Source: Desulfomonilia bacterium
GTDB lineage: Bacteria; Desulfobacterota; Desulfomonilia; UBA1062
Direction of reading: 5' to 3'
Assembly (NCBI GenBank): GCA_963664325.2
Contig: CAXXDQ010000008.1
Coordinates: 256,001-320,000, forward strand
DNA: 64,000 nucleotides
Of this stretch, positions 3,029 to 56,434 are shown piece by piece (position 1 is the first letter of the stretch; each line of letters starts with the position of its first letter). The position numbers were made by a program, and so were the translations under genes. The notes under the pieces were generated by a model that did not search any database, had not been told where the DNA came from, and worked only from the letters and a program-made list of their open reading frames with translations.

Positions 3029-6000
3029 TTGATGAATGATAAACAAACAAAAGGTCGCAGCAGAAAAAGCGGCCTGAGTATTACCGACATGATCGTAATG
3101 GTTCTGATTGTCGGAATACTTTTGTCATGGTGGACTTTTCAGCGCACCGACCGCGAAATGCGCCACGAACTCCTGCTGCAGGCGCGCCTGGTGGCAAAAT
3201 CGCTTGACCTAAAACAGATCATGGCGCTTTCCGGCACAAGAGCCGATTTGGGCCTGCCGGAATATCAGCAGCTCAAGCAGCAGTTCATATCCATAAGCAA
3301 GGCCAATCCGAAGTGCAAGTGGTTTTACCTGTTGAGCCGCAAGCCTGACGGTACAATATTCTTCTATCTGGACAGCGAACCTCTGGATATCCAGGACCCG
3401 ACCCTTCCCGGTGATGTCTATGACGAGGCTCCCGACGGGTACCATACCGTAATGACCGTCAAGGAAACAGTAATCGGCCCCCTGACAGACCGATGGGGGA
3501 CATGGGTCACAACGCTGATTCCGCTGACCAACCCGAAAACCGGTGCCGTGTTTGCAGTGCTGGGAATGGACATTGACGCCAGCAACTGGACAAGGGACGT
3601 GATCATCAATGCGGCCCTGCCTGTGAGTCTGATGATCGGACTGCTTATTATGATAGTTTTAGGGGTGATACTGGCCCGCTCGCGGGCGCAACTCCATAAG
3701 AGCGAGTCCGTGCAGCGCCTACTGCTTGAAAATATTGATGCAGGCATCGTGATCATTGATGTCGGCACGCATATTATCGAACAGGTTAACAAGAAAGGCT
3801 TGGAACTCTTTGCCGGTACTGAAGACCAGCTCGTAGGGAAAGTCTGCCATTGCTTTCTTTGTACGGCCGAAAAAGGAAACTGTCCTGTTACCGACCTCGG
3901 CCAGAATATCGACAACTCCGACCGTATTCTGCTGAGGGCCGACGGAAGCCATCTGCCCATAATAAAATCAGTCAGACATATCAGGATTTACGGCAAGGAA
4001 AAACTCATTGAAACATTTACGGACATCACCGATCGCAAACGGGCAGAGGATGCCCTGCAAAAGAGTGAACAAAGATACCGTCTTCTCGTGGAAAACGCCA
4101 ACGAATCCATTCTCGTGATACAGGACGGAAAGGCCCAGTTCGTGAACAAAAGGGCGGTGGAATCCCTTGGCTATTCAGAGCAGGAATTTATGTCTGCCAG
4201 TATTTTCGAACTCATTCACCCGGATGACCGGGAAGAGGTGGTGAATGGATATCTTGAAAAGATCGGGGGGGATACTACTACCACCCGGAAAATATACCGG
4301 GTCCTGCGCAAGAACGGCCAGGTCCGATGGGTGGAAATCAGCTCGCTCCTGATCGACTGGGAGGGACAACCGGCGACCCTGAACTTTATCAAGGATATCA
4401 CCGAACGCAAGCTGGCCGAGGAAGAGCTTGTCCGTTCAGAAGAAAAATACCGGAATATACTGGACAGTATGCAGGATGCATATTTCGAAATGGACCTGGC
4501 CGGCAATTTCACCTTCTTTAATGAAGCCACCTGCCTCAGTCTCGGTTATACCAGGGAGGAATTGCTCGGGCATAACTTCCGCATGATTGCCGCCAGCGAA
4601 GACGAGATAAAAGCAGTCTATGCAACCTACAAAAAAGTATTCGAGACAGGACAGCCGAACAAGGGTTTTACCTTTAAGGTCATGCGCAAGGACGGCAGCG
4701 AAGGATATACCGAGGCCTCGGTTTCCCTTTTATTGAATGAGCACGGCAAGCCGATAGGATTCCGCAGCCTGGCCCGGGACATCACCGAGAACAAGCTGGC
4801 GGAGGAAAGGCTTGCTCGCTCGGAGGAAAGGTACCGGGGCATACTGGACAGCATGCAGGATTCATATTTTGAGGTGGACCTGACAGGAAGGTATACTTTC
4901 CTTAATGAATCTACCTGCCGCAACCTAGGCTATACCGCGGAAGAATTGATCGGGCAGGACATGCGTATTGTCATTGCGACAGAAGAGGAGAAAAAGGCCG
5001 GCTTTGAGGTCTACAAAAATGTGTTCGAAACCGGAGAGCCTAACAAGGGTTATGCCTTCAGGGTCTTCAGCAAGGACGGCAGGAGCGGATATGCAGAGAC
5101 CTCGATTTCTCTTTTAAAGGATGAGCACGGCAATCCTATAGGGTTCCGCAATGTTGCCAGGGACGTCACCGAGAAGAAGAAGGCCGAGGAGGAACTGACC
5201 AAGCTGGCGGCGATTGTCCGGTACTCTTCTGAACTGATAAATCTTGCTACACTGGATGGCAGGATGATCTTCCTCAATCTAGCCGGCGCGGAAATTCTCG
5301 GGATTGATCAAGAAAACCTTGAGCAGACAAATATCATGCAGGTGATACCTGACAAGTTTAAGGAAAAGGTCCAGACCGAGATAATACCTGCGCTGCTGAA
5401 GGGAGATACCTGGGAAGGTAATCTTCAATACCTTAATATCAAGACCGGACATCTGACCGATGTCCATACGAGCGCATTCGCAATCAAGGATCAAACTACG
5501 GGAAAACCCTTGTATCTGGCCAATGTCTCGCTCGACATCACCGAGCGCAAGCAGGCTGAGGACAAGCTTAAAGACAGCGAAGAAAGGTTCAGGATAATCA
5601 GCAACAGCGCCCTGGACAGCATAATCATGATGGACTCCTCGGGCAATGCGACTTTCTTCAACCCTTCAGCCGAGAAGATGTTCGGATATTCGGCGGATGA
5701 AATAATAGGAAAACCCCTGCATGACTTTATCGCCCCTGAGAGATTCAGGAAGGTATTTGAAGAAAAGTTCCCGGAATTTCTCAGAACAGGCCATGGTGAT
5801 GTTATCGGTAAGGTGGTCGAGCTCACCGGCTTGAAAAAAGACGGGACGGAGTTCCCGATAGAGATTTCTCTTACAGGGTTCAAAAAAGACGATCAATGGG
5901 TGGCAGTGGCTACTCTCAGGGATATTTCCAAGCGCAAGAAAGCAGAGGAGGCATTAAAGAAAAGCGAAGAGAGCTACCGCACACTCATAGAGAATATCAA

Positions 6001-9000
6001 CGATGCTTTTTATGTGCTGGATGCCCAGGGTAATATAACCTATCTCAGCCCGGTCATCGAACGGTTATCCAAATACAAGATAGCCGATCTGATAGGTAAG
6101 TCCTTTGCCACGGTGATTTATCCGGATGATCTGCCCGGCCTGGTTGAAAGTTTTCAGCGGCTGCAGGCAGGCCAGGAGGAACCGGCGGAATTCCGCATTA
6201 TGGACAAAGACGGCAGGATCATATATGTCCGCACCTCCAGCCGTCCTATATACACGGATGGCCAGATCACCGGATATACGGCAATCATGAGCGACATCAC
6301 CGAACGCAAGCGGGTTGAGGATGAACTTTTACGCTCGGAGGAAAGATACCGCAATATATTGGACAGCATGCAGGACTCGTATTTCGAGGTGGATCTTGCA
6401 GGCAATTTTGTCTTCCTCAATGAAGCCACCTGCCATAACCTGGGTTATACCAGGGATGAGTTGATCGGGCACAGCTTCCGTATTATCACAGACAGCGAAG
6501 ATGCCATAAATACCATCTTCGAGGCTTACAACAAAGTTTTCATAACAGGAGAGCCGAACAAGGGCTTTGCTTTTGAGGTCATGCTCAAGGATGGAACTAA
6601 AGCGTATACGGAGACATCGATCTCCCTGTTGAAGGATAAGAACGGCAATCCTGTCGGGTTCAGAAGCGTCGCCCGGGACGTCACGGAGAAAAAGAAGGTT
6701 GAAGATGCGCTAAGGGAGAGCGAGGAAGTATTCAGGAGGAGCATGGAATTTGCCCCGGACGGCATTTACATGAGCGACCTTGAAGGCAACTTCCTTTTTG
6801 GCAACCGCAGGTGCGAGGAGATAATAGGCAGTAAGCGTGAGGAACTGATAGGTAAAAACTTCCTTGAGCTGAATCTCCTGCCGGAAAACGAACTGGTCAA
6901 GGCCGCAGAATTGCTTCAGGCAAATATCGAGGGCAAATCCACGGGCCCGGATGAATTCAATCTGATAAGAAAGGACGGCCGCAGCATACCCGTGGAAATC
7001 AACACCAGCGTGATACAGCGCTATGGAAAAACGGTTGCGCTGGCCTTTGTCAGGGATATTACCGAGCGCAAGATGGCCGAAGAAGCCCTTAGATCGACTC
7101 ATGAATATCTCGGCAACCTGCTGGAGTGCGCCAATGCCCCCATCATCGTCTGGGACGCCGAATTTAAGATCACCCAGTTCAATCAGGCTTTTGAGCGGCT
7201 TACAGGACGGAAGTCTGCGGATATTATGGGGCATGGGCTTGACTGGCTCTTTCCTGAAAACAAAAGACAGGAATTACTTGATTATATTTACTCCACAAGT
7301 GACGTGGCATGGGAGGCGGTGGAGATACCTATTCAGGCTGCTGACGGATCGGCCCACACCCTGCTGTGGAACTCGGCCATGCTGTATGCGGCCGACGAAA
7401 AAACTATTGTGGCAACTATTGCCCAGGGTCAGGACATAACGGACCGCAAGAGGGCTGAGGCAAAATTGCAGGAAACCAACCGCCACCTCGAAGAGGCCAA
7501 AGCGCAGGCGGAAATGGCCAATACGGCCAAGAGCGAGTTCCTTTCAAACATGAGCCACGAAATCAGAACCCCGATGAACGCAATAATCGGCTTAACATAC
7601 CTGGCGCTTCAGACAGGGCTTACATTAAAGCAGCGCGATTATCTGACAAAAATCCATGATTCCGCAGGCAACCTGCTCAGGATCATCAACGATATACTTG
7701 ATTTCTCCAAGATTGAGGCCGGACGGATTGAGCTCGAAAATATTGAATTTTCTTTTGATTCCATGCTCGCGGAAATTTCAAATATAGTAAGCAAGCCGGC
7801 AGACGACAAAGGAATTGAATTTATATTTGACATAGACTCCCATGTCCCGACCATGCTTTTTGGAGATTCATTGAGGCTCAAACAGGTACTAATAAATCTG
7901 ACAAACAATGCAATAAAATTCACACAAAAGGGACAGGTCGTCCTGAGAACAGAGCTCTTGAAAAGGACGAGTGTCGATGGAAATGAGCTTGCCAGAATAA
8001 AATTCTCGGTCAGCGATACGGGCATAGGACTGAAGCCCGAACAGATAGAAAAGCTCTTTGAGTCGTTCTCGCAGGCAGACAGCACCATAACACGAAGGTA
8101 TGGCGGGACAGGGCTCGGCCTCTCCATAAGCAGGCGTCTTGTCAACCTCATGGGCGGAGATATAGAGGTTGAAAGCACATTCGGCAAGGGCAGCACCTTC
8201 TCATTTTCCGCTGATTTCAAGGTCACGAAGGGCATCGGTGACGGAATGGCTTTCCCCGTCAATATCCAGGGACTCAGGGCGCTCGTTGTTGATGACCATG
8301 AAATAGTGACGGATATTATGGAAAATTATCTGACACGGTTCGGTTTCACCGTCATGACCGCATCAAGCGGGATGGAAGCTGTCGGTATACTTGAAAAAGA
8401 GACTGTCCCTTTCAGCGTTATGCTCCTTGACTGGAAGATGCCCGGGCTTGATGGTATTGAGACGTTGAAAAAAATCAAGGCGAACGGCAAAATCACTCAG
8501 ATCCCTCCTGTTATAATGGTCTCGGGATATCCGCCTGATGATGCCAAATCAATGATGGACAAACTCGGGGTCAAGGCGTTTTTAAAGAAACCCATGTCGC
8601 GCTCTGACCTGTTCGATGTGATTATGGAAGTATTAGGGAAGAAGAGTGAAAAACCGGAGAAGGCACGCAGTTCGTCAATAGAGAAAGGAGTTTTTGAAAA
8701 GCTGAAAGGTAACAGGGTGTTACTGGTAGAGGACAATCTGGTCAACCAGCAGGTGGCTTCTGAAATACTCAAGAGCGCCGGAATGCTTGTGACGGTTGCA
8801 GGCAACGGGATAAAGGCTTTAAAAGCCCTTGATGAAAGCACGTTCGATATAGTCCTGATGGATGTTCAGATGCCTGAGATGGACGGGATAGAAGCGACAC
8901 GCATAATAAGGTCAGATGAAAAATACAGCAAGCTCCCGATAATAGCGATGACTGCGCATGCAATGTCCGGTGACCGTGAGCGGTTTTTGGAAGCGGGCAT

Positions 9001-9748
9001 GAACGACCACACCCCAAAACCGATTAATCCGGATTCATTCTTTTCCACATTGTCGAAGTGGCTTGATAAAAAAAGCATGCCTGAAAATGCCATTATTGAA
9101 CCTTTCAGACCGAAAAGTATTGATGTTCTGCCAGATGAACTCAACGGGATAGATGTCAGTGATGCTCTCAGGCGTATAATGGGCAACAAGATCCTTTTGA
9201 GAAACATCATCCTTGACTTCTGTGTGGTGTTTTCAGATGCGGAAGGTAAAATAAAAACCCTGATTGAACAGGGTGATATGACAGGCGCCGAAACACTCGT
9301 GCACAGCATAAAGGGAGCTGCAGGAAACATTGGTGCATTGAAACTGCATCAAGTGGCGTCTGAGTATGATGATAAGTTAAGAAAGAAACAAACAGGCGCA
9401 TTAGCCAAGCTGCATACAAAATTTGCACTGGAATTTGAAAAGGTGCTTTCAAACCAAACACTGCTTGCCAGACTGCCGGTTGTAAGCGGTGATACCCCTG
9501 TTTACGTGAGCGAAAAAGAAAGCATGGAGCTTGCAATGCTCATAGAAAACCTTGACAAGCAACTTGTAGACAACAGTTTTGACAGCGCAGATACGTTTGA
9601 AAAGATATTGAATATAGGGTGCGGGCCGCTGGAGAACGAACTGAAAAAGCTGGGTAATGCAATCAACAGGTTTGATTTTGAAGAGGCGATTACGCTGCTT
9701 GCGGAGATCAGAAAAAAAATCGGCATCTGTGCAGAGGGGGAAAAATAA
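3029..9748 (+). CDS. Membrane hybrid sensor histidine kinase: 2 TM/extracytoplasmic domain, 10 PAS, HisKA-HATPase, 2 REC, HPt
   Basis: Repeated DITERK PAS linkers; H-box [11 protein letters not shown]; G boxes DTGIG and GGTGLGL; REC motifs LLDWKMPG and LMDVQMP; HPt HSIKGAAG. Confidence 0.95.
4448..6690 (+). repeat. Three paralogous ~350-nt PAS-coding repeats starting at ~4448, ~4832 and ~6347
   Basis: YR(N/G)ILDSMQD(A/S)YFE(M/V)DL...GEPNKG...G.P.GFR..ARD.TE recurs with visible DNA-level similarity; the first two copies are 384 nt apart. Confidence 0.9.
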
Positions 9749-45324: not shown

Positions 45325-46585
45325 ATGAGCCAGATGAAGATCTTATCCATGCGGGAGATGAATGTAAACGGCAAGGTTGTGCTGTTGCGGCTGGATATAA
45401 ATTCGCCAATCGACCCGGTGACAAAAAGAATAGTCAACAGGAACAGGCTCAATGAAAGCCTTCCGACGCTGAATTTCCTGATTGAGAACAACGCGAAGAT
45501 TGCGATTATCGCCCATCAGGGCGATACGCTTGATTATCAGAACCTGATACCCTTAAACGAGCATGCTTCTATCTTAAGCGAACTGCTCGGGAAAGAGGTC
45601 GAATATATTGATGATGTCTGCGGCCCTGCAGCTCAATATCTGGTAAAAAGGCTGAAAAAAAGCAAAATAGCCCTGCTGGGAAATCTGAGATATTTGAGCG
45701 AGGAAATCTCCACGTTCGAAAATGCCGTCAAACTGGAGCCGTCCGATATGATGGGCACTTTCCTTGTGCGCAGTCTATCACCTCTGGTTGATATTTATAT
45801 AAACGACGCATTTGCAGCGGCGCACAGGAATGCACCGTCAATGGTCGCTTTTCAGGAGATTAAACCTTCCGCCGCAGGGGACCTGCTTTTCAGGGAGGTC
45901 GAAGCATTAACGAAAGTGATGAAGTCGCCAGTGAGGCCTTCCGTGTTTGTACTGGGCGGGGCGAAAATTTCAGACGCATTCGGCATGATGAAACAGGTCC
46001 TGGAAAATGGCACGGCCGATAAGATCCTTACCTGCGGCATAACCGGCGAGATATTTATAATGGCATCCGGAAAGTATATCGGTGCAAAAAAGGAAAAGTT
46101 TCTGAAAGACAGGAACCTGCTGGAATTCATCGAACCTGCAAAGGAATATTTGAAGGATTACCCAGGAAGGATTGAGATGCCGGCAGACCTGGCCTTCGAC
46201 TCAGGAGGGCAGAGGAAAGAAATCGACCTACAGAACCTGCCAGTTGAGGAGTTGTTCATGGATATCGGGACAAAGACCATTTCGAGATATTCGGACATCA
46301 TTGCCGGCGCCAATACCATTTTCACAAACGGCCCGGCAGGGGCTTACGAAAACGCTTTGTTTGAAAAGGGTACAAAAGATGTTTTACAGGCAATCGCCGG
46401 TTCAAAGGGTTATTCAGTCATAGGCGGCGGGCGATACAGTGGCGGCTGCCGAGAAACTGATCGACATTAAGAAAATCGGCTATGTCTGCACAGCAGGCGG
46501 CGCCATGGTCAGGTTCCTTACCGGCAAAAAACTCCCTCTGATCAAGGCCATGGAAAAGGCATACCTGAGAATGAAGGCGGAATAA
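45325..46585 (+). CDS. pgk: Archaeal-type phosphoglycerate kinase family protein (extra G at 46429-46431)
   Basis: RLDINSP, NLRY, NDAFAAAHR, LGGAKISD, DIG..T and NGPAG.YE; corrected frame reads GGGDTVAA...CTAGGA. Confidence 0.85.
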
Positions 46586-48110
46586 ATGTTTTATACCGGG
46601 GCCGGACGTTTAATGGTTTTCATCATTGCCGTTTCTCTGGCTGCCTGTGCCACATTACCGAAGGACATCCCGAAAGTCCCGTCCTATGCCGTTGAAAACA
46701 GAGGTGATACAAGGATAGCAAAGGCCGTAGAGAGAGAGGCTGTCAATCATCCCGGTGTGTCCGGTTTTTATATGCTGCCGTCGGATATGGATGCATTCAT
46801 CGCGCGGGCAGTTCTCATCGAAGGGGCCGAGCATACTCTTGATCTTCAGTATTACATTGTCAGCGACGACCTGACGGTCAGCTTTCTTATGGAGAGGCTC
46901 ATTTCGGCAGCAGACCGCGGCGTCAGGATAAGGCTTCTTTTTGATTATCTCGGGACGGGACTTAATGATTCTCAACTGTGGATGCTAAACAGCCACCCCA
47001 ATATCGAGCTGCGGCTGTTCAATCCAACGGGAAGCCTCAGGCAGTTGAACCACAGGATGCACAACAAGGCTTTTATAGTCGATAATGTCGTTGGAATAGT
47101 CGGAGGCCGTAACATGGCCGATGAATATTTCGGGGCAAGGGAAGACGTTAACTTCGCGGACATGGACATTATGGCGGCAGGCCCTATTGTAAAAGACATA
47201 TCGAAAAGTTTTGACATATACTGGAACTGCGAATGGGCGATTCCGTATGAATGCCTCTCATCAGACAAACCTGATGATGAAAATTTAAAGAAGTCCTTGG
47301 ACTCCTTGAAAGAAACAAACAAAAATGCGAAGGATTCGAAATATGCGGTTCGCCTGAAGGAATCGGATTTTTTTAGGCAGGCTTGTGAAGGGTGATATTT
47401 CTTACAGCTGGGCCGATGGCTCCGTAGTCTATGACCTGCCTGAAAAGATTTCGGCAAAGAACAAGAAGGACCCCGATGCCGACCTTATGACGCAACTGAT
47501 CCCCCTTGCCAGAAATACGAAGACTGAACTGATCCTCATATCCCCATATTTTGTCCCGGGAAAATCGGGTGTTGATATTATTGGAATGTTTAGGAAAAGC
47601 GGTATGCGGGTCAGGATTGCAACCAATTCCCTGGCGTCCACAGATGTGATTTCAGTGCATTCCGGTTACGCAAAGTACAGGAAAGAATTGCTTGAAGAGG
47701 GCGTTGAACTCTATGAGATGAGAGCCGATCCGGAAGAAAGGGGCAAGGAGGCCAGACGCAAGGCTTTAGGCTCATACCGCGGCAGCCTGCACGCTAAAAT
47801 GTATATATTTGACAGGAAAGCGGTCTTTATAGGCTCCCGGAATCTTGATGCCAGGTCCAGGCAGATAAATACTGAAATCGGTATTTATGTTCAAAGCCCT
47901 GAAATCGCCTTTCAGGCGGCGAGGATGTTCGAATTAACGACTGTACCGCTATACTGCTTTAAGCTGGGCCTCTCCGATGATTCCCGCCTGGTCTGGACAA
48001 CAGAAGTAAACTGCAAGGAAGTCAAGTATTACCATGAACCGATGACAAGCTTCTGGAGGCGTTCCTCTGCCTGGTTTGTATCTATATTCGTACCCGAATC
48101 ACAATTGTGA
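46586..48110 (+). CDS. Phospholipase D family lipoprotein (ClsC/YmdC-like; extra T at 47368-47374)
   Basis: Lipobox LAAC; two HKD motifs (RMHNKAFIVD and SLHAKMYIFD); SPYFVPG; TNSLASTD. Confidence 0.9.
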
Positions 48111-48252
48111 AAAACGGTTTGATGAAGAATCACGGGCACTGAAATTTATATACTCTAAGAATGGCGTTTTTTTAAGGATTCGATATTGTAATTGCCTGAG
48201 TGATACGGAGGCTAGGACAAATCAGGCCAAGAAAAGTTGCCGGAATGCGGAG

Positions 48253-49218
48253 TTATATGGTCCAGTGTAAAGAACCGTAGAGGGCATCAATAACCATCAT
48301 ATTCTTCACTGCATCATCCATGCCCCAGCGGGGAGGTCTTTTGTTTGTTACCGCATCCATGAAGTCTTCCAGTTCAAGGACATAGCAGTTGGCTCCGGGG
48401 GTAGTGACAATTTCATCACCACTGTTCGTGCGGATGATAAAACTGGCTTCTTTCTCGCCCGGGAACCATGGACTTTCGATGATGATTGAACCTTCAGATC
48501 CGGCAATTTCAGTGTAATGACGCTCGAAATTGTTTATGCTTGTTTCAAAATGGGCAAGGATGCCGCCGGGAAATTCAAGCATGCCGGTCATGGTTTCATC
48601 GACTTTTCCGCAAACAGCAAAGGCTGAAGATTTTAACGGCTCGGCACCAGTGATAAGACGTGACACGTTGACACAGTAGCAGCCAACATCCATAAGCGCT
48701 CCGCCGCCGAGTCTGGGATTTGCAGTAATTGTTCCGGGTTCGTCAAGCATGAATGTGAACCGGCTGAAGATTGTAGAGAGTTCCCCGATTTTATTTTGGG
48801 AAACGGATTCAATGACTTTCTGATAAAGCGGGTGAAACCTGTACATGAAGGCTTCGGCGACAGGCACCCCTGTCTTATCGGATGCTTTGGCACATTCAGC
48901 GGCCTGGCCCGCATTCAGGGCAAAAGGCTTTTCACACAGGACAGGAATGCCTTTATCTATTGCCTTCAGGCACCACTCGGCATGCATGCTGTTCGGCAGG
49001 GGTATATAGACCGCATCAATTTTTCCACAGTCGAGTAGTTCAATATAAGATCCATATGCTTTTTCAATACCATACAAATGCTGCCATTCTCCGGCCCTTT
49101 TGGCATCGCGGCTGGCAATGGCGTGTACAACGCCGTTTTCTGTAAGCTTCATAGCGTCTATGATAGCCCTGCTTATATTGGCGGTTCCCAGTATTCCCCA
49201 TTTGAAATTGTATGGCAT
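48253..49218 (-). CDS. Gfo/Idh/MocA family oxidoreductase
   Basis: WGILGTANI, YIPLPNSMH.EW, LCEKPF, EAFMYRFHP and GGGALMDVGCY. Confidence 0.92.
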   Translation of the reverse strand: MPYNFKWGILGTANISRAIIDAMKLTENGVVHAIASRDAKRAGEWQHLYGIEKAYGSYIELLDCGKIDAVYIPLPNSMHAEWCLKAIDKGIPVLCEKPFALNAGQAAECAKASDKTGVPVAEAFMYRFHPLYQKVIESVSQNKIGELSTIFSRFTFMLDEPGTITANPRLGGGALMDVGCYCVNVSRLITGAEPLKSSAFAVCGKVDETMTGMLEFPGGILAHFETSINNFERHYTEIAGSEGSIIIESPWFPGEKEASFIIRTNSGDEIVTTPGANCYVLELEDFMDAVTNKRPPRWGMDDAVKNMMVIDALYGSLHWTI

Positions 49219-49221
49219 ACT

Positions 49222-50081
49222 CTATAGACTTATATCTGGTAATGACTGGCGGGAATGTGCTGAAATGGCATTCCCGAGACCTTTTTTAAGAGCTTCGACA
49301 ATTTCAGGATAGATATTGCCGTTATGTTCATTCATATAAACCTTGGAAATCTCGGTAGGAAGGATGAGTATGTTTTTGTTCCAGCTGCTCAGCCTCCTGC
49401 AGAGTTCTCCTTTCCCGGAAAAAACCAGATTTTCCGCAACAGTTGTTGGAATGTCCGGGATGGTGATCTTACCCAGCCGGTCAAGCCAGTCGTCAATTGT
49501 TTTACCCCAGCGTTTCCTGTCCAGGAGTTCTGTCCCAAGGTTAAAAACCGGAGGATGCATTATCCCTTTTTCGACCTGACGGGAAATGTTGTACGAATGG
49601 ATGTCATAGATTATACAGACCCCGAACTTTTTCAATAGGACTGTGATACAGCTTCCTATGAACCTGTAAAATGCATCATGTTTGAAAAGACTTTTCAGGT
49701 TCATCTCATCGGTGGGCTGCTTGCCGTAAACCTGAACACCCCAGAATCTGTCCGGGGTGAGAGGAAGTGCAAGTTCAGGCGGCCGGTTCAAATCGTATTC
49801 AGCCCTGGAATCAAGTACCCATATGGCGCTTTGGCTATCCTGAATCATCAGGTCAGTCATGGGATCTTCTTCAAAAAACGGGCATTTTCTGATATGTGAA
49901 TAAAAGGCAGCAGTTCATTCCTGACATTATGTCCGGCATGGATCGCCATAGCGATATAGGGCACGGCCAGATCAATATTGAATGAATATCCGCCTGTGGG
50001 GCTTACACCGCTAAACCTGGTCAGGCTGCCAATCTGCTCGATAATGCCTGGATCACATGGGATATTCACTATCGCATCCAT
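49222..50081 (-). CDS. N-formylglutamate amidohydrolase-family Zn hydrolase (one base missing at 49873-49878)
   Basis: AIHAGH; corrected RFFEEDPMTD; DSRAEYDLNR; YDIHSYN; FNLGT; TEISKVYMNE. Confidence 0.85.
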
Positions 50082-50089
50082 CCTTTGAT

Positions 50090-51076
50090 TTATTCGATGC
50101 CATACCTTTCAAGGGCGGATGAAACAATAAGGTGGAGCATTTCCCGATATTCCTCCATATGCCCCTTTCCTGATGGGTGGTAGAGCGAGTAAATCTGGGG
50201 GCTCCAGCTTTTGAACGGCTTCAGGCCGGGTATGCCATTGATTTCTATGACTCTAAGTTTATCATCCGCCCCGACTCGCATATCAACCCTTACATGATCA
50301 AGGCAATTAAGGGCATCGGTCGCCTGTTTGCACAGTTCTTTTGATTCCTCAAACCTTGTCTCTGGTATGCTTATTTTGGTCAATCCCACACCGCGCAAGT
50401 CGCTACGGAGGATATGATATTTGCCGTAGTGTGATTCTTCAACAGTGACGAGTCCGGGCAGTATTTCCTGGAGCCTCCCGTTTCCGAACATCAGTACAGT
50501 ATATTCCTGCCCTGGAAGGTATTCCTCAACAAGAGCGGCCTGTTCGAGCTTTTCGTGAACATACCTTATGCGGTTTTCAAGTTCCGGTTTGGAATGAACA
50601 ACGCTTTCATCACTGATCCCGATTGATCGAGATTCGCAATTTGGTTTAACAAATGCAGGGAAAGGGATATCGGCGATGTCATCACCGATATCGATCAGAT
50701 AATGTTTGGGTACCAGAGCCCCGTGCTCGTGCATGATGCGGTGGGTGTCATATTTCTGGATAAGCTGTTTCATTGTGAGAGAGCTGGGGCCGATATAAGG
50801 AATGCCCTTGTCGTCCATGATGTCCGCCACCCAGTCGATATCGCCTTTGATTCCAATGATGTCCTCACGTTGGGATATGTAATAGAGCGCGCTCCACACG
50901 ATATCGTACGACTTGTTGCTGATGGCCTTCATGAAATCATCAAGGGTCTCGACATAGGCAATTTCAGCCGATCTGTCCCCAGTGTTAAGCGTCTCGCACA
51001 TTACGTTGGTCACCTTCATGTCTCCCCATCCCTGAGCATCACCACCAGGGCCGGTAACTATAAGTATCTTCTTCAT
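50090..51076 (-). CDS. Divergent D-Ala-D-Ala-ligase-like ATP-grasp ligase
   Basis: GIPYIGPS, FPAFVKP, LVEEYLPGQEYTV, RVDMR and IEINGIPG; TGATG coupling to the upstream racemase. Confidence 0.85.
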   Translation of the reverse strand: MKKILIVTGPGGDAQGWGDMKVTNVMCETLNTGDRSAEIAYVETLDDFMKAISNKSYDIVWSALYYISQREDIIGIKGDIDWVADIMDDKGIPYIGPSSLTMKQLIQKYDTHRIMHEHGALVPKHYLIDIGDDIADIPFPAFVKPNCESRSIGISDESVVHSKPELENRIRYVHEKLEQAALVEEYLPGQEYTVLMFGNGRLQEILPGLVTVEESHYGKYHILRSDLRGVGLTKISIPETRFEESKELCKQATDALNCLDHVRVDMRVGADDKLRVIEINGIPGLKPFKSWSPQIYSLYHPSGKGHMEEYREMLHLIVSSALERYGIE

Positions 51077-52011
51077 CAACAATCTCCTTGTTTTTTAAAT
51101 ATGAACAGATCCGGATCATATCTGTAATTTTTTAAGGCTGTTGCAGTCAGGGGTGATATTGGCTGAAGTATATTTGATATTGAGGTGATTTTTTCATCAC
51201 TTAAAATGATTTTGGACACCACTTCCAAATCAATATGAATGTCCGGATATCTTTCCTTGATGTCATCAAGGAACAGGCAGTCGCTCATTGCCTTGTTCGG
51301 GTTGAGGATTGTCACAGGGCCGTCAAAGTATTTTTCAAGCTTTTCTCTGAAAATATCGTGGCTGTATCCGTAATGGGTGCAACAGAAGGCAGAAATAACC
51401 GGCAGTGTTTTATCACCGGCCTTTTCAGAAGCCTCGAGTATATAGCGGTCTATCATATCAGTCACGGTTCTGCTCGCCGGTGCTTTTTCAATCTCGCCTG
51501 CAAGCTTGTCGCATGGTTGGAGAATTATGCGATCTTCGCTTATGCCGTTTTCCATCAATCTGGTTTTGTGCGAGTACGCTTCAATGGTTGTTGGCGTCCC
51601 AAGGATAATAACCCGGCTGTCAGGATGGGAGATCAACTCTTTGTAGATCATCATGACCCCGAAATCAATGATATCGACAACCGGTATTGCTGTATTACGG
51701 CTGAATTCAGTATGTGAATAAATTGTCGAGAGTGTGTTGCATGCGATCATTATCATGTCAGGTTTAAACCGTTCCATACCCTTAAGAGCGCAGTTGAACA
51801 CACGGATTTTTTCGGCCATGTCGGGAAGCAGGTTGTAGCCCCTGTTTTGTTCGGGCCAGGCGTTAAAGTAGGTCAGTTTCGAATTTTTGAAGCTGTGGTA
51901 CAGATTCAGGTTTTTGACGATTTCAGCACATACAGAAAGTCCTCCAAGGCCTGAATCGGTGATCAATAAAGACAAGTTGTCCTTGTTTGCTAAAGAGTCC
52001 ATTCTGATCAT
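51076..52011 (-). CDS. Asp/Glu racemase family protein
   Basis: TDSGLGGLSV; both catalytic Cys motifs present (IACNT and CCTHY); ATGA overlap with the capA-like stop. Confidence 0.88.
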   Translation of the reverse strand: MIRMDSLANKDNLSLLITDSGLGGLSVCAEIVKNLNLYHSFKNSKLTYFNAWPEQNRGYNLLPDMAEKIRVFNCALKGMERFKPDMIMIACNTLSTIYSHTEFSRNTAIPVVDIIDFGVMMIYKELISHPDSRVIILGTPTTIEAYSHKTRLMENGISEDRIILQPCDKLAGEIEKAPASRTVTDMIDRYILEASEKAGDKTLPVISAFCCTHYGYSHDIFREKLEKYFDGPVTILNPNKAMSDCLFLDDIKERYPDIHIDLEVVSKIILSDEKITSISNILQPISPLTATALKNYRYDPDLFIFKKQGDC

Positions 52012-53246
52012 CGCTTTTCTGTTAGCCATTTAGCTGTCAGGTCATATGCCCAGGCTGGGGAGTCGTCTATCGTCCCATCCATGATCCTTGTCATTGCATC
52101 AATCCAATGCTGGTTGTGCTGCATTGTCGACACGCGGTTGCGGAACATGGCAGCCCCTTTATTAGGCTCATCCTCCAGTTTCTTCATAATCATATTGATC
52201 TCTTTTTGAAAACCGGTGACTCCGTAATAACGCAAAAATCCGTACCAGGCATCCATGACTGAATGTTCATCTGCAAGCGGCTGGGATATTATTTTCAGAT
52301 CATTAAAAAATCGGTCACATTTATCTTCTTTAAGCAGGCTGATGCCCTCGGCGCCTATCTCATAAGGGATAATTCTTAAATTGGAAATACAGCCTTTCGC
52401 AAGCCCGGCTTTAACAAGATAACCCGTTTTGCGATAGAGGAGGTCGGTTTCCTGATAAAATACAAAATTACCCAGGCTGTAGCAGATCGGCGTATTGTTG
52501 TGTATTTGAATGCCTTGCGGAACGTGGGGATGGTGGCCTATGATCAGATCCGCGCCAGCCTCGGCGATGAGCTTGAATGCATTTGTCACATAGGGGGGAG
52601 GAAAGGCTATATACTCAACACCGCAGTGGCAGATAACGATAATAATGTCGGCAGCTTTTCGAAGTTCCTCAACCAGACATGCAACCCTTTCAACTTCCCA
52701 TCCGAATACGCCAGGCCCGTGAACAGCCGCTGTCAGGTCTTCTCCTTCGCTGAAGTTGACTATTCCGATTTTAATTCCCTTGAGGTCAATAATCAGCGGG
52801 GATCGGGCTTCTTCGGCAGAATTTCCAGCGCCAAGGAAACGAATGGAATTTTCTTCCAAAAGTTTTTTAGTCTGATTGAACGCTTCAATACCATAATCAA
52901 ATACGTGATTGTTTCCAAGGGTCACGACATCAAAAGGAACCGATGTGAGTCCCCTGATATGTTCAGGACGGCCTTTGAAAACTGCGCCGCTCTTCCATAC
53001 CGGGGTATCTCCAAATAGCGTACATTCCAGATTGGTGATGCGGAGATCGCTGTTCCGTAAAGAAGGCAGTACATCTCCATAGATGACTTCGGGTGTCTGC
53101 TCTATTATCCGATCGAATTCACGAATTGGTGCCCAGTCGCCGGAAATTATGATTTCGACCTCGGTCCCGGATGATTTCTCATTTATCCAGTATCCGTTAT
53201 CCCAATCAAAACCATCAGGTGTCTGGTGGTTGCTATTAATGTCCAT
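52008..53246 (-). CDS. CapA/PgsA family metallophosphoesterase-fold protein
   Basis: SGD, TNLE, LGNNHVFDYG, CHCGVEY, IIGHHPHVPQ and YSLGNFVF. Confidence 0.9.
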   Translation of the reverse strand: MDINSNHQTPDGFDWDNGYWINEKSSGTEVEIIISGDWAPIREFDRIIEQTPEVIYGDVLPSLRNSDLRITNLECTLFGDTPVWKSGAVFKGRPEHIRGLTSVPFDVVTLGNNHVFDYGIEAFNQTKKLLEENSIRFLGAGNSAEEARSPLIIDLKGIKIGIVNFSEGEDLTAAVHGPGVFGWEVERVACLVEELRKAADIIIVICHCGVEYIAFPPPYVTNAFKLIAEAGADLIIGHHPHVPQGIQIHNNTPICYSLGNFVFYQETDLLYRKTGYLVKAGLAKGCISNLRIIPYEIGAEGISLLKEDKCDRFFNDLKIISQPLADEHSVMDAWYGFLRYYGVTGFQKEINMIMKKLEDEPNKGAAMFRNRVSTMQHNQHWIDAMTRIMDGTIDDSPAWAYDLTAKWLTEKR

Positions 53247-53260
53247 AAGTGTATCTGCCT

Positions 53261-54433
53261 TTATACATAAACTCTCGGTACACGTGATGAAAAAGATGAT
53301 ACAATCTCATAATTAATTGTTCCTATCGAGCGGGCAATCTCATCAGCGGTGATCTCATTGTCACCCTGCTTTCCTATCAAGACGACCTCATCTTCAACAT
53401 CAATGTTTTCAAGATTTCCAACATCTATCATGGTAAGATCCATACAGATCCTTCCCACGACAGGGGCTTTCTGCCCCCTTACCAGCACAAAGCTGTTGGA
53501 AGAGAACAGCCTTTTGTAGCCATCCGCGTAGCCTATAGGTATTGTGGCAATTTTAGTAGGTCTGGGACTTTCCCAAGTGCATCCATAGCTGACTTTAAAA
53601 CCCGCAGGCACATCTTTGAGATGAATGACGGTGGATTTAATTGTCATGACGGGTTTGAGGTTAATCAAGTCTCTATTTGTTTCTTCCGAAGGCCAAAGTC
53701 CATACAGGGCAATTCCCGGTCTTACCATATCCAGATGAGTTTCAGGCATTTCTATTGTGGCTGCGCTATTGGCTGCATGGCGTAATTCAACTTCGAAAGA
53801 ATTTTTCTTCAGTTGATCAAGGATATCCAAAAATATGTTGAACTGTGAGAGTGCATGGGTTTTATCACGGCTGTCTGCGCGTGCGAAATGTGTGTATATC
53901 CCTTCAATTTGGAGTCCCGGCATTCCGGCGATATTCAGAATGTCCTTTACCGTCGTGTTCAGGTCACCCTTTGAGAAGGGCATCAATCTCGGAACGTTTG
54001 ACATGACGCCAAGCCTTCCCATCCCGGTGTCGATTTTGATATGCGCCTTTATGCGTTTATGCTGCCTGAAGGCCTCTCCTGAAAGTGCTTTGGCGGATTC
54101 AAATGAGTTAATTGAAGCCCTGATGTCATTTGCTGCCAGATAATCTATGTAACCTGGAGGGCTGTATCCAAAAAGCAGTATTGGCGCGGTTATGCCCGCC
54201 TGCCTGAGCTGTGCTGCCTCGGATATCCTTGCAACTGCAAGATAATCAGCGCCGTTGGCCAATGCTGTCCGGGAGACCTGTACCGCACCATGACCATAAC
54301 CGTCAGCCTTTACAACCGCCATTATCCTGGAGTTTTTTGAGGTAACACGTCTCAGTTCATGCAGGTTATTGGTAAGGGCTTTGAGATTGATTTCGGCCCT
54401 TGTAAGAAGTGGTATTTCGTCGCCGATGTTCAT
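53261..54433 (-). CDS. alr: Alanine racemase
   Basis: AVVKADGYGHG, HIKIDTGMGRLG, YTHFA, HAANSAA, VRPGIALYG, IGYADG, GRICMD and TINYE. Confidence 0.96.
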   Translation of the reverse strand: MNIGDEIPLLTRAEINLKALTNNLHELRRVTSKNSRIMAVVKADGYGHGAVQVSRTALANGADYLAVARISEAAQLRQAGITAPILLFGYSPPGYIDYLAANDIRASINSFESAKALSGEAFRQHKRIKAHIKIDTGMGRLGVMSNVPRLMPFSKGDLNTTVKDILNIAGMPGLQIEGIYTHFARADSRDKTHALSQFNIFLDILDQLKKNSFEVELRHAANSAATIEMPETHLDMVRPGIALYGLWPSEETNRDLINLKPVMTIKSTVIHLKDVPAGFKVSYGCTWESPRPTKIATIPIGYADGYKRLFSSNSFVLVRGQKAPVVGRICMDLTMIDVGNLENIDVEDEVVLIGKQGDNEITADEIARSIGTINYEIVSSFSSRVPRVYV

Positions 54434-54439
54434 TTCTGT

Positions 54440-55285
54440 TTATAGTTTTCCCTCACCATATTCCGTCGTGTATTCTTTGAACAAACGCATGACTTCGAGT
54501 GTGTTTTTCCCGACCATGCCGCCGCCTATCTTCAAATCATTTACCTTCACAACCGGGACTATTTCTTTGTTCGATGCGGTAATGAAAACCTCTTCCATGC
54601 TTTCAAGTTCCGATTTATCGATATCCCGGATTTCCACTTTGAAAGGCTCCTTGACAAGCTTTAAGACCACACTTCTTGTGATTCCCGGTAATATATCCTG
54701 ATTCGATGTTATAAGTTTGCCGTTCTTGAAGAAGAAAAAGTTTGTTGTCGTACCTTCAAGAATGCGGTTTTGCCTGTCAACATAAATGGCTTCAACACCG
54801 CCCTCTTTTTTGGCCTGCTGCTGTGCGAAAACCGCAGAGAGGTAATTCGTGCTCTTGGCTCCGGGGATAAATCTTTCCATGTCGACGGTTATGACTTTAA
54901 CGCCATCGGTGTACCATGAGGGAGGGAGCATATGCTTGTCAGTTACCATGACCATCAGTATTCCTTTGCCTTCAGGTGAGACTCCGTCGGAACTTACGCC
55001 GCCGGTATACACTATGCGGATATTGGATTCCTTATGGTGAGGGTTCTTCTTAATGGTTTCTTCTACGATTTCACAAATCTGAGCGTTTGTGTGTTTTAGT
55101 TCAAGACCGATATATTTGGCTGAGTTCTCAAGGCGCCCGACATGCTCTTTAAGATAGAATGGACGTCTGTTGTAGGTAATAAGGAAGTCGAATACCCCGA
55201 ATCCCCTTAATACGACTATGTCTTTTGCGCATAAAACCGCCTTGTCGTCATCCACGAATTGTCCGTCAATGTAGTAAGTGTCCAT
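54440..55285 (-). CDS. Class IV PLP aminotransferase (D-amino-acid/branched-chain type)
   Basis: LRGFGVFD, H..RLENSA, AKSTNYL, EGTTTN, ILPGITR and EVFITAS. Confidence 0.9.
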   Translation of the reverse strand: MDTYYIDGQFVDDDKAVLCAKDIVVLRGFGVFDFLITYNRRPFYLKEHVGRLENSAKYIGLELKHTNAQICEIVEETIKKNPHHKESNIRIVYTGGVSSDGVSPEGKGILMVMVTDKHMLPPSWYTDGVKVITVDMERFIPGAKSTNYLSAVFAQQQAKKEGGVEAIYVDRQNRILEGTTTNFFFFKNGKLITSNQDILPGITRSVVLKLVKEPFKVEIRDIDKSELESMEEVFITASNKEIVPVVKVNDLKIGGGMVGKNTLEVMRLFKEYTTEYGEGKL

Positions 55286-55540
55286 ATATTTCTCATCCTC
55301 TCAATTATTAGTCTGTATAACGGCATAATTTGAACTGCTTTTTGTGTCAATTAAATAATGACTAAAAAAGAATATTGAATGAGGTGTAAATGTATTAAAG
55401 CTAAATTTCAGGTTCAAATAGTATTGTATAAAGTAATTTAAATATAATCACTGGCTATGATCTGCTTGAAAAGAATTCCAAATATCTAATAGAAATTACA
55501 AGTATTAAAATAAGCAGACGATTGTTTCTGATAGTCGGAA

Positions 55541-55577
55541 ACAGGAAAAAGCGGGAAAATCTTCCGCTTTTTCCTGT
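55541..55577 (-). terminator. Intrinsic terminator after flxA
   Basis: ACAGGAAAAAGCGGGA...TTCCGCTTTTTCCTGT inverted repeat. Confidence 0.8.
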
Positions 55578-55594
55578 AAGGAAAAGATTTGATC

Positions 55595-56434
55595 CTAATA
55601 TTCTTTTGTAAGTTTATCGAGCTCTGCCAGAGAGAACACCGGCCCGTCCTTGCAGACATATTTATGTCCGACATTGCAGCGGCCGCATTTGCCTATTCCG
55701 CACTTCATCCTCATTTCAAGAGATGTGAGGATGTTCTCTTTGGAAAAGTTCAGATCAAAGAAAACCGGCAGTGTAAACCTGATCATGATCGGAGGTCCGC
55801 AGATAACTGTGACAGCGTTTTCATTGCTTGGTGCAACATCCTTGCAGACCGTAGGGACAAATCCCTCCCGGCCTTTCCAGCCTGAATCAGCCTTGTCCAC
55901 CGTAACATGCAGGTCAATATCAGCTCTTTTACCCCATGCTTCGAGCTCATCTTTATAAAGAAGAAGACCCGGATTTCTTGCTCCATATATGCAGGTTATA
56001 TTTCCGAAGTCTTTGCGGTTTTTCTCGTCGAGCATATAAATGATGAGAGAACGCAGCGTCGTAAAGGCAAAACCTCCGCCGACGACAACGATATTTTTCC
56101 CCTTTAGAAATTCAAGAGGCCATGAATTGCCCAGAGGCCCCCTGATTCCCATTACAGCGCCTTCTTCCATTTCGTGCAGTGCGGAAGTAACAACTCCCGC
56201 CTTCTGTACCGTGAATTCGACATAGCCCTTTTGCGTCGGTGAACTTGCGATACCAATCGGGGACTCGCCCTTACCGTAAATGGAAAGTTCACCGAACTGG
56301 CCCGGAATATATGCAAACTTCTGCTCGTCTTCCGGATTGACAAATACAAATCTGAAAGATTTGATATCCTTTGTGTCAACTTCGGTAATTATTTTATCAA
56401 CCCTCACCGGGAAGGGAACATAAGGATTATTCAT
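55595..56434 (-). CDS. flxA: FAD/NAD(P)-binding [2Fe-2S] oxidoreductase, FlxA-like
   Basis: PGQF, RGPLGN, CGPPIMIRF and EMRMKCGIGKCGRCN...CKDGPVF. Confidence 0.88.
   Translation of the reverse strand: MNNPYVPFPVRVDKIITEVDTKDIKSFRFVFVNPEDEQKFAYIPGQFGELSIYGKGESPIGIASSPTQKGYVEFTVQKAGVVTSALHEMEEGAVMGIRGPLGNSWPLEFLKGKNIVVVGGGFAFTTLRSLIIYMLDEKNRKDFGNITCIYGARNPGLLLYKDELEAWGKRADIDLHVTVDKADSGWKGREGFVPTVCKDVAPSNENAVTVICGPPIMIRFTLPVFFDLNFSKENILTSLEMRMKCGIGKCGRCNVGHKYVCKDGPVFSLAELDKLTKEY

Follow-up and report, generated by a model that had tools for sequence, protein, structure and literature searches.

What does a tightly packed run of genes for D-amino-acid enzymes make, in a genome in which no canonical glutamate racemase gene (murI) was found? 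The locus in question lies in a window of 64,000 nucleotides (positions 256001-320000 of contig C8) from the Desulfomonilia bacterium genome G000, which is 4.3 Mb in size and 95.6% complete. Open reading frame (ORF) listing and family scans place seven minus-strand ORFs, g1 to g7, between positions 48253 and 55285 of this window. They encode a class IV aminotransferase (g1), an alanine racemase (g2), a CapA/PgsA-family metalloenzyme (g3), a MurI-like racemase (g4), a Ddl-fold ATP-grasp ligase (g5), an FGase-fold amidohydrolase (g6) and a GFO/IDH/MocA oxidoreductase (g7). Family assignments made from the sequence alone hold under Pfam and NCBIfam scans, and the close spacing reported there agrees with the coordinates: gaps range from 3 to 14 nucleotides (g1-g2, 6; g2-g3, 14; g5-g6, 8; g6-g7, 3), the g3 stop overlaps the g4 ATG at 52011 as ATGA, and the g4 stop overlaps the g5 ATG at 51076 as TGATG. 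Our preferred reading, to which we assign a probability of roughly one half, is that of a composite operon in which g1-g2 supply D-alanine (D-Ala) and D-glutamate (D-Glu), g3-g6 form a module and g7 is a neighbour.

The cluster is a composite of three layers (g1-g2, g3-g6 and g7), not one ancestral unit. This emerges from 52 genomes of the window's order, all from one family, among which G007, G008 and G009 belong to the same genus as G000. Only G000 and G007 contain a g5 relative, and G007 carries all seven genes in colinear order. G008 and G009 share the same Flx/Hdr flank (91-97% amino-acid identity), followed by a g1 homologue directly beside g7 and then by pgk; the segment g2-g6 (49222-54433) is missing from both. 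In two other genomes, G004 and G005, g1-type and g2-type genes stand adjacent without the CapA-like, racemase and ligase genes. The sequence-only reading had treated all seven genes as a single unit. That view is not sustained, since g7 is found at none of 79 other loci that encode g5 relatives and sits beside g1 in G008 and G009, and since g1-g2 are separable. The g7 gene (48253-49218, assigned by Pfam) is therefore only a local neighbour that derives from an ancestral g1-g7 arrangement and is separate from the conserved core.

Divergence within the cassette is uneven. Between G000 and G007, identity is 92.5% for g1, 91% for g5, 79% for g2, 70% for g3, 69% for g4 and 57-70% for g6, with flanks at 92-96%, and the two cassette copies are about equally distant from Syntrophales-type versions. 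This pattern could result from differing constraint or from partial recombination. Identity between the g1 of G000 and its counterpart in G008 and G009 is only 73%, and the G000/G007 allele may have arrived with the cassette; a g1 tree gave no resolution on this point.

The core g3-g6 is a conserved gene set that recurs across phyla and has no characterised pathway. Relatives were searched in one genome per GTDB species, and their neighbours were mapped by tblastn. The 79 loci encode g5 relatives with 45-78% identity and span at least six phyla, with hosts in Syntrophales/Syntrophaceae, Desulfobacterales, Holophagae, Aminicenantes, other Acidobacteriota, Kiritimatiellia, Lentisphaeria (Lentisphaerota) and Spirochaetota. 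The genes g3, g4 and g5 occur together nearly everywhere; in Acidobacteriota, g4-g5 are accompanied by a convergently oriented g3. Neighbour clustering over 80 places (the 79 loci plus the window, many loci ending at contig edges) recovered the ligase in 78, the CapA-like gene in 71 and the racemase in 62. The hydrolase varies: an M20 form appears in 30 places, the FGase-like form in 14 and a Peptidase C26 in four. The M20 form exceeds the TIGR01891 'amidohydrolases' cut-off (172 versus 153.75 bits), and the C26 form most resembles the gamma-glutamyl-GABA hydrolase PuuD (113 and 77 bits, under its cut-off). Other neighbours of the core are lineage-specific housekeeping genes, such as those for RuvABC, QueA, NusA and IF-2. 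Open frames of about 700 amino acids in Aminicenantes had suggested an M20-racemase fusion; these ORFs proved to be separate.

The supply pair is a looser associate of the core, with both g1 and g2 present at six of the 79 loci. A Desulfobacteraceae sample comprised 71 genomes, 24 of them module-bearing, and 20 loci were inspected. An Alr gene lies upstream of the core at 15 of these 20, and four show the exact order g1-g2-g3-g4-g5-FGase. One locus, L124 (G120:C32:1-9500), has FGase-like, ligase and g1-type transaminase genes; CapA-like and racemase genes were not detected between them. The proposal of a conserved make-ligate-cleave gene set without a published description is thus upheld by the 79 core loci and the four six-gene loci: no published description of the g3-g6 set was found by a full-text literature search with little coverage of subscription journals.

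Bacterial cell walls cannot be built without a supply of D-Glu, and MurI counts as a drug target. Of the order's 52 genomes, 47 encode a canonical MurI that scores over the TIGR00067 cut-off; it is missing from G000, G007, G004, G005 and G024, and in G000 the sole hit is g4. Canonical copies of the cell-wall genes had been considered possible elsewhere in the genome, which holds for ddl (246 bits) and for a second alr (352 bits, C5:148954-150042); no canonical murI was found. Since canonical murI is missing elsewhere, the cluster is not purely accessory.

The loss can be followed at the chromosomal site itself. The site is flanked by genes for an acyl-CoA dehydrogenase and a helicase; murI occupies it in G008 and G009, while G000 has 549 bp with a small membrane-protein ORF and G007 has 394 bp. 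The ORF in G000 (C4:452534-453043, minus strand) runs to roughly 150-170 codons and includes hydrophobic segments. The canonical MurI retained by G008 and G009 itself shows only 32-34% identity to MurI of four other genera in the family and forms a long branch. All four species of the genus encode a similar, canonical MurD (378-382 bits), and free D-Glu is therefore still needed.

It is the transaminase-Alr pair, rather than the MurI-like g4, that tracks murI loss in this order. A g1-type transaminase occurs in exactly six of the 52 genomes (G000, G007, G008, G009, G004 and G005). In G004 and G005 a g2-type Alr follows directly after it, with 56-58% identity, so that the adjacent pair is present in four genomes. 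All four are without canonical murI, and 47 of the other 48 keep it. In G008 and G009, where no Alr adjoins the transaminase, murI is retained, as it is in 45 of the 46 remaining genomes. Outside the order the counts agree with this, though with exceptions: 12 of 15 Desulfobacteraceae genomes with an Alr-bearing module are without MurI, while two with clearly Alr-less modules have it. Among Syntrophales-type genomes that carry only the core, MurI is kept in eight of ten; one has a split gene and one has none. All of these are raw counts over related, non-independent genomes. The most likely explanation is that the g1-g2 pair made murI dispensable in this lineage, also feeding MurD.

The same data bear on a different explanation, in which the core itself replaces murI, either with g4 as the cell's glutamate racemase or through an ATP-driven cycle in which g5 couples L-Glu with a carrier amino acid, g3 inverts the Glu at the C-terminus and g6 sets D-Glu free, comparable in logic to MurD2/MurL. 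Several observations are consistent with this idea. The murI gene is missing from G000 and G007, which gained g2-g6, and retained in their sisters G008 and G009, from which the module is absent; among 50 module-bearing genomes of other phyla, 37 gave no MurI score over the cut-off; and in the Desulfobacteraceae sample MurI is present in six of 24 module-bearing genomes versus 26 of 47 module-less ones. The g4 protein also retains every MurI catalytic and substrate motif. MslH-type enzymes act on a C-terminal residue, and MurL offers a precedent for ATP-dependent one-way peptide epimerisation, according to PMC8788868. Against this, G004 and G005 lost murI with the g1-g2 pair alone and without the core, the core-only Syntrophales-type genomes mostly keep MurI, and the two Alr-less Desulfobacteraceae modules coexist with it. 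A racemase for free Glu within the module would also make a ligate-epimerise-cleave route to D-Glu redundant. In Aminicenantes, a missing canonical match is uninformative, since these genomes contain a second MurI-like gene. Replacement of murI by the core is therefore considered unlikely. The second gene of Aminicenantes is divergent (60-68 bits to TIGR00067), lies apart from the module racemase (G075:C5:64310-64948, G081:C12:68095-68727, G077:C3:366599-367237 and G088:C5:35110-35748) and may be their housekeeping racemase.

The residues of g1 fit the role assigned to the pair. The g1 gene (54440-55285; Aminotran_4 PF01063, 170 bits) falls under the cut-off of the canonical D-amino-acid transaminase (DAAT) model TIGR01121 (136.9 versus 277.45 bits), and models of branched-chain aminotransferases (BCAT) are likewise below theirs. 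It aligns about equally to an archaeal BCAT (5MQZ), the Haliscomenobacter DAAT Halhy (7P7X) and the Aminobacterium DAAT AmicoTA (8AHR). Three g1 residues, R27 of an LRG motif, R90 and the Lys of an ASNK motif near residue 240, align to R27*, R88 and K237 of AmicoTA and to R28*, R90 and K241 of Halhy; in the BCAT, Tyr stands in place of the first of these carboxylate binders and Ala in place of the third. In AmicoTA the matching residues bind the alpha- and gamma-carboxylates of D-Glu, its best substrate, as described in PMC10003956. The g1 protein thus has the residue signature of D-Glu-preferring non-canonical DAATs and is a predicted D-amino-acid transaminase acting on D-Glu/2-oxoglutarate. 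The g2 gene (53261-54433), the second alanine racemase copy of the genome, lies well over its cut-off (TIGR00492, 405 versus 168 bits) and has both domains, PF01168 and PF00842. A route to D-Glu through Alr and a D-amino-acid transaminase, known from Bacillus and Staphylococcus (cited in PMC8788868), had been suggested for this locus from the sequence alone, and the g1 signature and the murI loss pattern both back it.

Downstream of the pair, g4 (51076-52029, likely start ATG 52011) is predicted to be a glutamate racemase of a distinct type. It scores below the TIGR00067 cut-off (59.2 versus 146.65 bits), and it retains the DSGxGG motif as DSGLGG, the CNT motif within IACNTLS, the CTH motif within CCTHYG and the Tyr of the PYG loop. 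Among 55 family members, at least 90% conserve both cysteines. The g4 protein further possesses a family-specific NAWP....GYN loop and is extended at the C-terminus by about 60 residues, and phylogenetic analysis places the family in a clade apart from canonical MurI with support of 100/100.

The ligase g5 (50090-51082, likely start ATG 51076; Dala_Dala_lig_C PF07478, 67 bits) misses every Ddl/Van cut-off (84.9 versus 243 bits for NF002378; 65.7 versus 245.65 for TIGR01205), and its best profile matches are VanA structures. In Escherichia coli DdlB, residues K97, K144, R255, D257, E270, N272 and G276 serve ATP, magnesium and the transition state; these correspond to K110, K146, R265, D267, E280, N282 and G286, all invariant in the g5 family. 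DdlB holds its substrates with the triad E15-S150-Y216, the acidic residue binding the ammonium group of the first D-Ala. This triad is replaced: DdlB E15, H63, S150 and K215/Y216 become the invariant Q17, Y67, R152 and L225/R226. The family also has an inserted loop, KPxKSWxPQ, with invariant Lys, Trp and Gln, and an N-terminal domain, marked by an invariant TGPGGDAQGWGDM motif, for which solved Ddl structures gave no alignment. The missing acidic residue and the added arginines would point to a more anionic substrate. Plain D-Ala-D-Ala synthesis appears unlikely, because g5 is without the residues that Ddl uses for D-Ala. A canonical ddl is present elsewhere in G000 (C4:176836, 246 bits). 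Two further Ddl-like ATP-grasp genes on C4, arranged in tandem (L002 and L003, C4:437577-439180; 91 and 74 bits to PF07478), lie about 13 kb from the former murI site. The ligase family comprises at least 1094 clusters at 90% identity with E <= 1e-30, whose public names are only 'D-alanine-D-alanine ligase', 'hypothetical protein' or 'ATP-grasp domain-containing protein'; the Protein Atlas likewise offers only 'D-alanine-D-alanine ligase family' clusters. For this family, the D-alanine-D-alanine ligase label is probably wrong.

These ligase features also bear on remodelling of the cell wall in the manner of vancomycin resistance, with g5 making D-Ala-D-Glu or another D-Ala-D-X dipeptide for MurF and the hydrolase removing the normal dipeptide as VanX does. 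The vanC clusters combine a racemase, a Ddl-family ligase and a dipeptide hydrolase, and the parts list of the present locus parallels theirs. VanT models are among the matches of g2 and VanA models among those of g5, all below cut-offs, and the closeness of g5 to VanA structures is in keeping with the idea. It is nonetheless improbable: the Ddl residues for the first D-Ala (E15 and S150) are replaced in g5, genes for VanR/S, VanH and VanY are not conserved near the core, and the CapA-like partner would have no role. The hosts are also diderm, as the presence of lpxC in G000 indicates.

The g3 protein (52008-53246) contains a PGA_cap domain (PF09587, 206 bits versus a cut-off of 27) and is a candidate epimerase of a C-terminal residue. 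It appears to be cytosolic, as no hydrophobic N-terminal segment or anchor is visible in its sequence, and it has its own invariant basic C-terminal region. Its solved relatives by sequence are MslH entries only. MslH is a lasso-peptide C-terminal Trp epimerase (PDB 8GQ9) with the dyads His88/Asp91 and His295/Asp11 and the Ca(II) ligands Glu44, Asn87, His259 and His261, and enzymes of its type act on the C-terminal residue, according to PMC10406935. Seven of these eight functional residues are matched, with D37, E74, N113, H114, D117, H207 and H241 of g3 corresponding to D11, E44, N87, H88, D91, H259 and H295 of MslH, and Gly209 standing in place of H261. Both His/Asp dyads and three of the four Ca(II) ligands are thus kept, most of them also being general metallophosphoesterase motif residues. 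The g3 protein misses the cut-off of the MslH model NF038314 by a wide margin (66 versus 700 bits).

Membership of the CapA family raises the further prospect of an oligo- or poly-D-glutamate made in the cytosol independently of CapB, with g5 acting processively like RimK and g3 setting the stereochemistry, as proposed for PgsA. Bacillus subtilis without pgsA makes an L-rich polyglutamate (D/L 5/95 versus 75/25), as reported in PMC6029982. This shift to the L-form fits an epimerase role for CapA-family proteins and accords with a polymer. Several sources of D-Glu within one operon, and C26 and FGase-type hydrolases compatible with Glu-Glu bonds, also agree with it. The absence of capB from the unit, already remarked from the sequence, extends to the genome: pgsB/capB was not found anywhere in G000 (best TIGR04012 score 24 bits versus 222.7; PgsC/capC was not searched). 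Moreover, g5 is closest to the dipeptide-forming Ddl and VanA and not to RimK or CphA, and the core has no conserved partner for export or anchoring. Polymer synthesis is accordingly very improbable. G000 has three PGA_cap genes in total, the other two lying at C7:514515-515234 and C7:669846-670643. A preprint on polyglutamate in Cloacimonadota concerns a CapB/CapC/PgsF operon.

The hydrolase g6 (49222-50081) requires a correction to the assembly. A run of six A at plus-strand positions 49873-49878 splits the gene into two frames. Its earlier assignment to the FGase family is retained, while the listed ORF (49222-49860) proves to be only the C-terminal 212 codons of the gene. One more A (A7) is present in independently assembled contigs from runs X1 and X2, which come from the same sample, possibly the source sample. 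With the extra base, g6 has 286 codons, no internal stop and 68% identity to the intact G007 orthologue. Since the extra base appears in contigs built separately and relatives have a single frame, an error in the assembly is the probable cause of the frameshift. A programmed -1 frameshift at T_TTT_TTG was rejected on the same two grounds, and a pseudogene was rejected as the 286 codons stay open with A7. The C-terminal piece in the window scores 31 bits to FGase PF05013, over the cut-off of 28.9, and intact orthologues score 49-61 bits; FGase proteins of this type gave no NCBIfam match and no PDB sequence match.

Beyond the observed families, conservation, mosaic structure, residue patterns and murI loss, we infer substrates, a product, a direction of flux and a physiological role as follows. 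Supply enzymes centred on D-Ala and D-Glu, the coupling of racemase to ligase, and hydrolases of three unrelated folds together lead us to propose a pathway that makes, epimerises and cleaves a D-Glu peptide. The g2 enzyme would convert L-Ala to D-Ala, and g1 would convert D-Ala and 2-oxoglutarate to D-Glu and pyruvate; the pair would feed the core pathway and, in this lineage, also supply cell-wall D-Glu via MurD. Translationally coupled to g5, g4 would supply D-Glu, which g5 would join to a second amino acid, most likely D-Ala. The metal-dependent g3 would then epimerise the residue bearing the free alpha-carboxylate of the N-acyl-amino-acid product, and g6 (FGase-like here, M20D or C26 elsewhere) would cleave that product, which may be a D-Ala/D-Glu dipeptide. 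The sequence-only reading had named a D-Glu oligomer, a D-Ala-D-X stem dipeptide and a peptide tag as possible products.

Racemases and transaminases are reversible, and the same enzymes could therefore run towards the recycling or catabolism of D-amino-acid peptides from the cell's own or necromass peptidoglycan. The hydrolase would free D-Glu or D-Ala from muropeptide fragments, the CapA-like protein would epimerise a dipeptide (compare the E. coli L-Ala-D/L-Glu epimerase), the racemases and transaminase would produce L-forms or keto acids, and the ligase would rebuild a precursor. The reversibility of all supply enzymes, the hosts (anaerobes of sediments, digesters and guts), the constant but interchangeable presence of a hydrolase, and GH20 hexosaminidase and GH95 genes near some Aminicenantes loci are compatible with such a role. 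Those glycosidases are lineage-specific, though, and across phyla the core has no conserved transporter, amidase or Mpl-type ligase next to it. An ATP-spending ligase coupled translationally to a racemase also suits synthesis more than breakdown, and recycling is distinctly unlikely.

Several points weigh against the composite operon with a D-Ala/D-Glu supply pair. G008 and G009 have a g1-type transaminase and still keep murI, and G024 is without murI, transaminase and module, which implies another route to D-Glu or a missed gene. G064 (Spirochaetota), G160 and G171 contain g1, g2 and the core plus canonical MurI. The pattern at the level of the order may reflect only two loss events in non-independent genomes. 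The choice of D-Ala as second substrate would follow only from the recurrent Alr/DAAT linkage. The three hydrolase types suggest no single bond: FGase and M20D forms point to an N-acyl amino acid such as X-Glu, and C26 to a gamma-glutamyl amide. At the level of residues, the alignment of the g5 and DdlB loops around K215/Y216 is uncertain, and the g3 residues that match MslH are largely general metallophosphoesterase motifs, which are no proof of an epimerase.

A wider proposal may be built on the composite operon, one we regard as possible and on balance doubtful. Outside capsule loci, CapA-family proteins would act as epimerases on small N-acyl amino acids. Such an enzyme, partnered here by a Ddl-fold ligase of altered specificity, a MurI paralogue dedicated to the pathway and an exchangeable amidase, would help to make and turn over a cytosolic D-Glu dipeptide, such as gamma-D-Glu-D-Ala or D-Ala-D-Glu. 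If true, at least 1094 protein clusters from anaerobic bacteria would represent a new D-amino-acid metabolite pathway. More boldly, the set might carry out an ATP-driven, one-way conversion of L- to D-glutamate and so be able to stand in for MurI.

This analysis newly describes the mosaic structure within the genus, the loss of murI at its syntenic site, the pair that tracks this loss, the DAAT signature of g1, the residue map of g5 onto DdlB and the resolution of the g6 frameshift. Sister species that differ by one gene cassette and murI provide a clean natural experiment on the dispensability of murI. A soluble CapA homologue with defined partner enzymes likewise provides a tractable system for CapA/PgsA chemistry, and the core module is common and yet named only generically in public annotation.

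The surroundings of the cluster were also characterised. A terminator-like hairpin on the minus strand (55541-55577, 14-bp stem) follows the upstream Flx/Hdr-type gene; its folding energy is -24.5 kcal/mol (z = -5.5), and none of 200 shuffles folds equally well. Its U-tract is weak, and it is absent from the listing of a simple consensus terminator scan. Between the hairpin and g1 lies an AT-rich spacer (55286-55540; GC 0.35 in 55000-55499), presumably the promoter region. Insulation of the cluster from the upstream Flx/Hdr genes, as first described from the sequence, is supported by both features. An Rfam scan of 47800-56000 gave no match at E up to 1. On the other side, two adjoining PLD-like (PLDc_2) genes at 46586-48110 separate pgk (45325-46470) from g7 in G000. 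In G007, G008 and G009, pgk comes almost directly after g7, and the best DNA matches to the PLDc_2 pair are on other contigs at 72-73% identity; the pair is a second local insertion beside the cassette. Further away, at 3029-9748, the window contains a very long plus-strand ORF of 2239 codons.

Several parts of the locus resemble known systems and depart from them. The closest parallel to the supply pair is the Alr-DAAT route of Bacillus and Staphylococcus: g1 and g2 encode both enzymes, g1 has carboxylate binders of the AmicoTA/Halhy type, and in the window's order all four genomes with the adjacent pair are without murI. It differs in that g1 is of a non-canonical type below TIGR01121 and that the pair, whose activity is predicted, is joined to a ligase module in one operon. 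The racemase g4 shares with MurI the DSGxGG, CNT and CTH motifs and the PYG-loop Tyr, whereas its score (59 versus 147 bits), separate clade, NAWP....GYN loop and C-terminal extension of about 60 residues set it apart, as does the coexistence of g4-type genes with canonical MurI in eight of ten Syntrophales-type genomes. The MurD2/MurL system of Xanthomonas, as described in PMC8788868, is alike in logic, with ligation first and epimerisation of the C-terminal Glu afterwards, in bacteria without murI; its protein families are unrelated, MurD is canonical here, and a UDP-MurNAc peptide is an improbable substrate.

The CapA-like protein invites two comparisons. The g3 protein has the two His/Asp dyads of MslH and all but one of its four Ca(II) ligands. 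It differs from MslH in its score (66 bits versus 700 for NF038314), in the Gly at the position of His261, in the absence of a lasso-peptide gene nearby and in its own basic C-terminus. With PgsBCA/CapBCA it shares the PgsA/CapA Pfam family, and D-Glu chemistry is common to both systems. In G000, however, no PgsB was found (PgsC was not searched), g3 is without a visible N-terminal anchor, and g5 is an ATP-grasp enzyme in contrast to the Mur-ligase-type PgsB. Ddl and the vanC clusters, with their VanT racemase and VanXY hydrolase, are the nearest parallel to the ligase. The central and C-terminal ATP-grasp domains and the ATP, magnesium and transition-state residues are kept in g5, which likewise sits with a racemase and an amide hydrolase. 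Unlike Ddl and Van ligases, g5 falls far under their cut-offs and has an unaligned N-terminal domain, an inserted loop and Q/R/R in place of E15/S150/Y216. A canonical ddl is present elsewhere in the genome. Unlike the vanC clusters, the locus has a partner racemase that is MurI-like and not VanT, and an added CapA-like enzyme.

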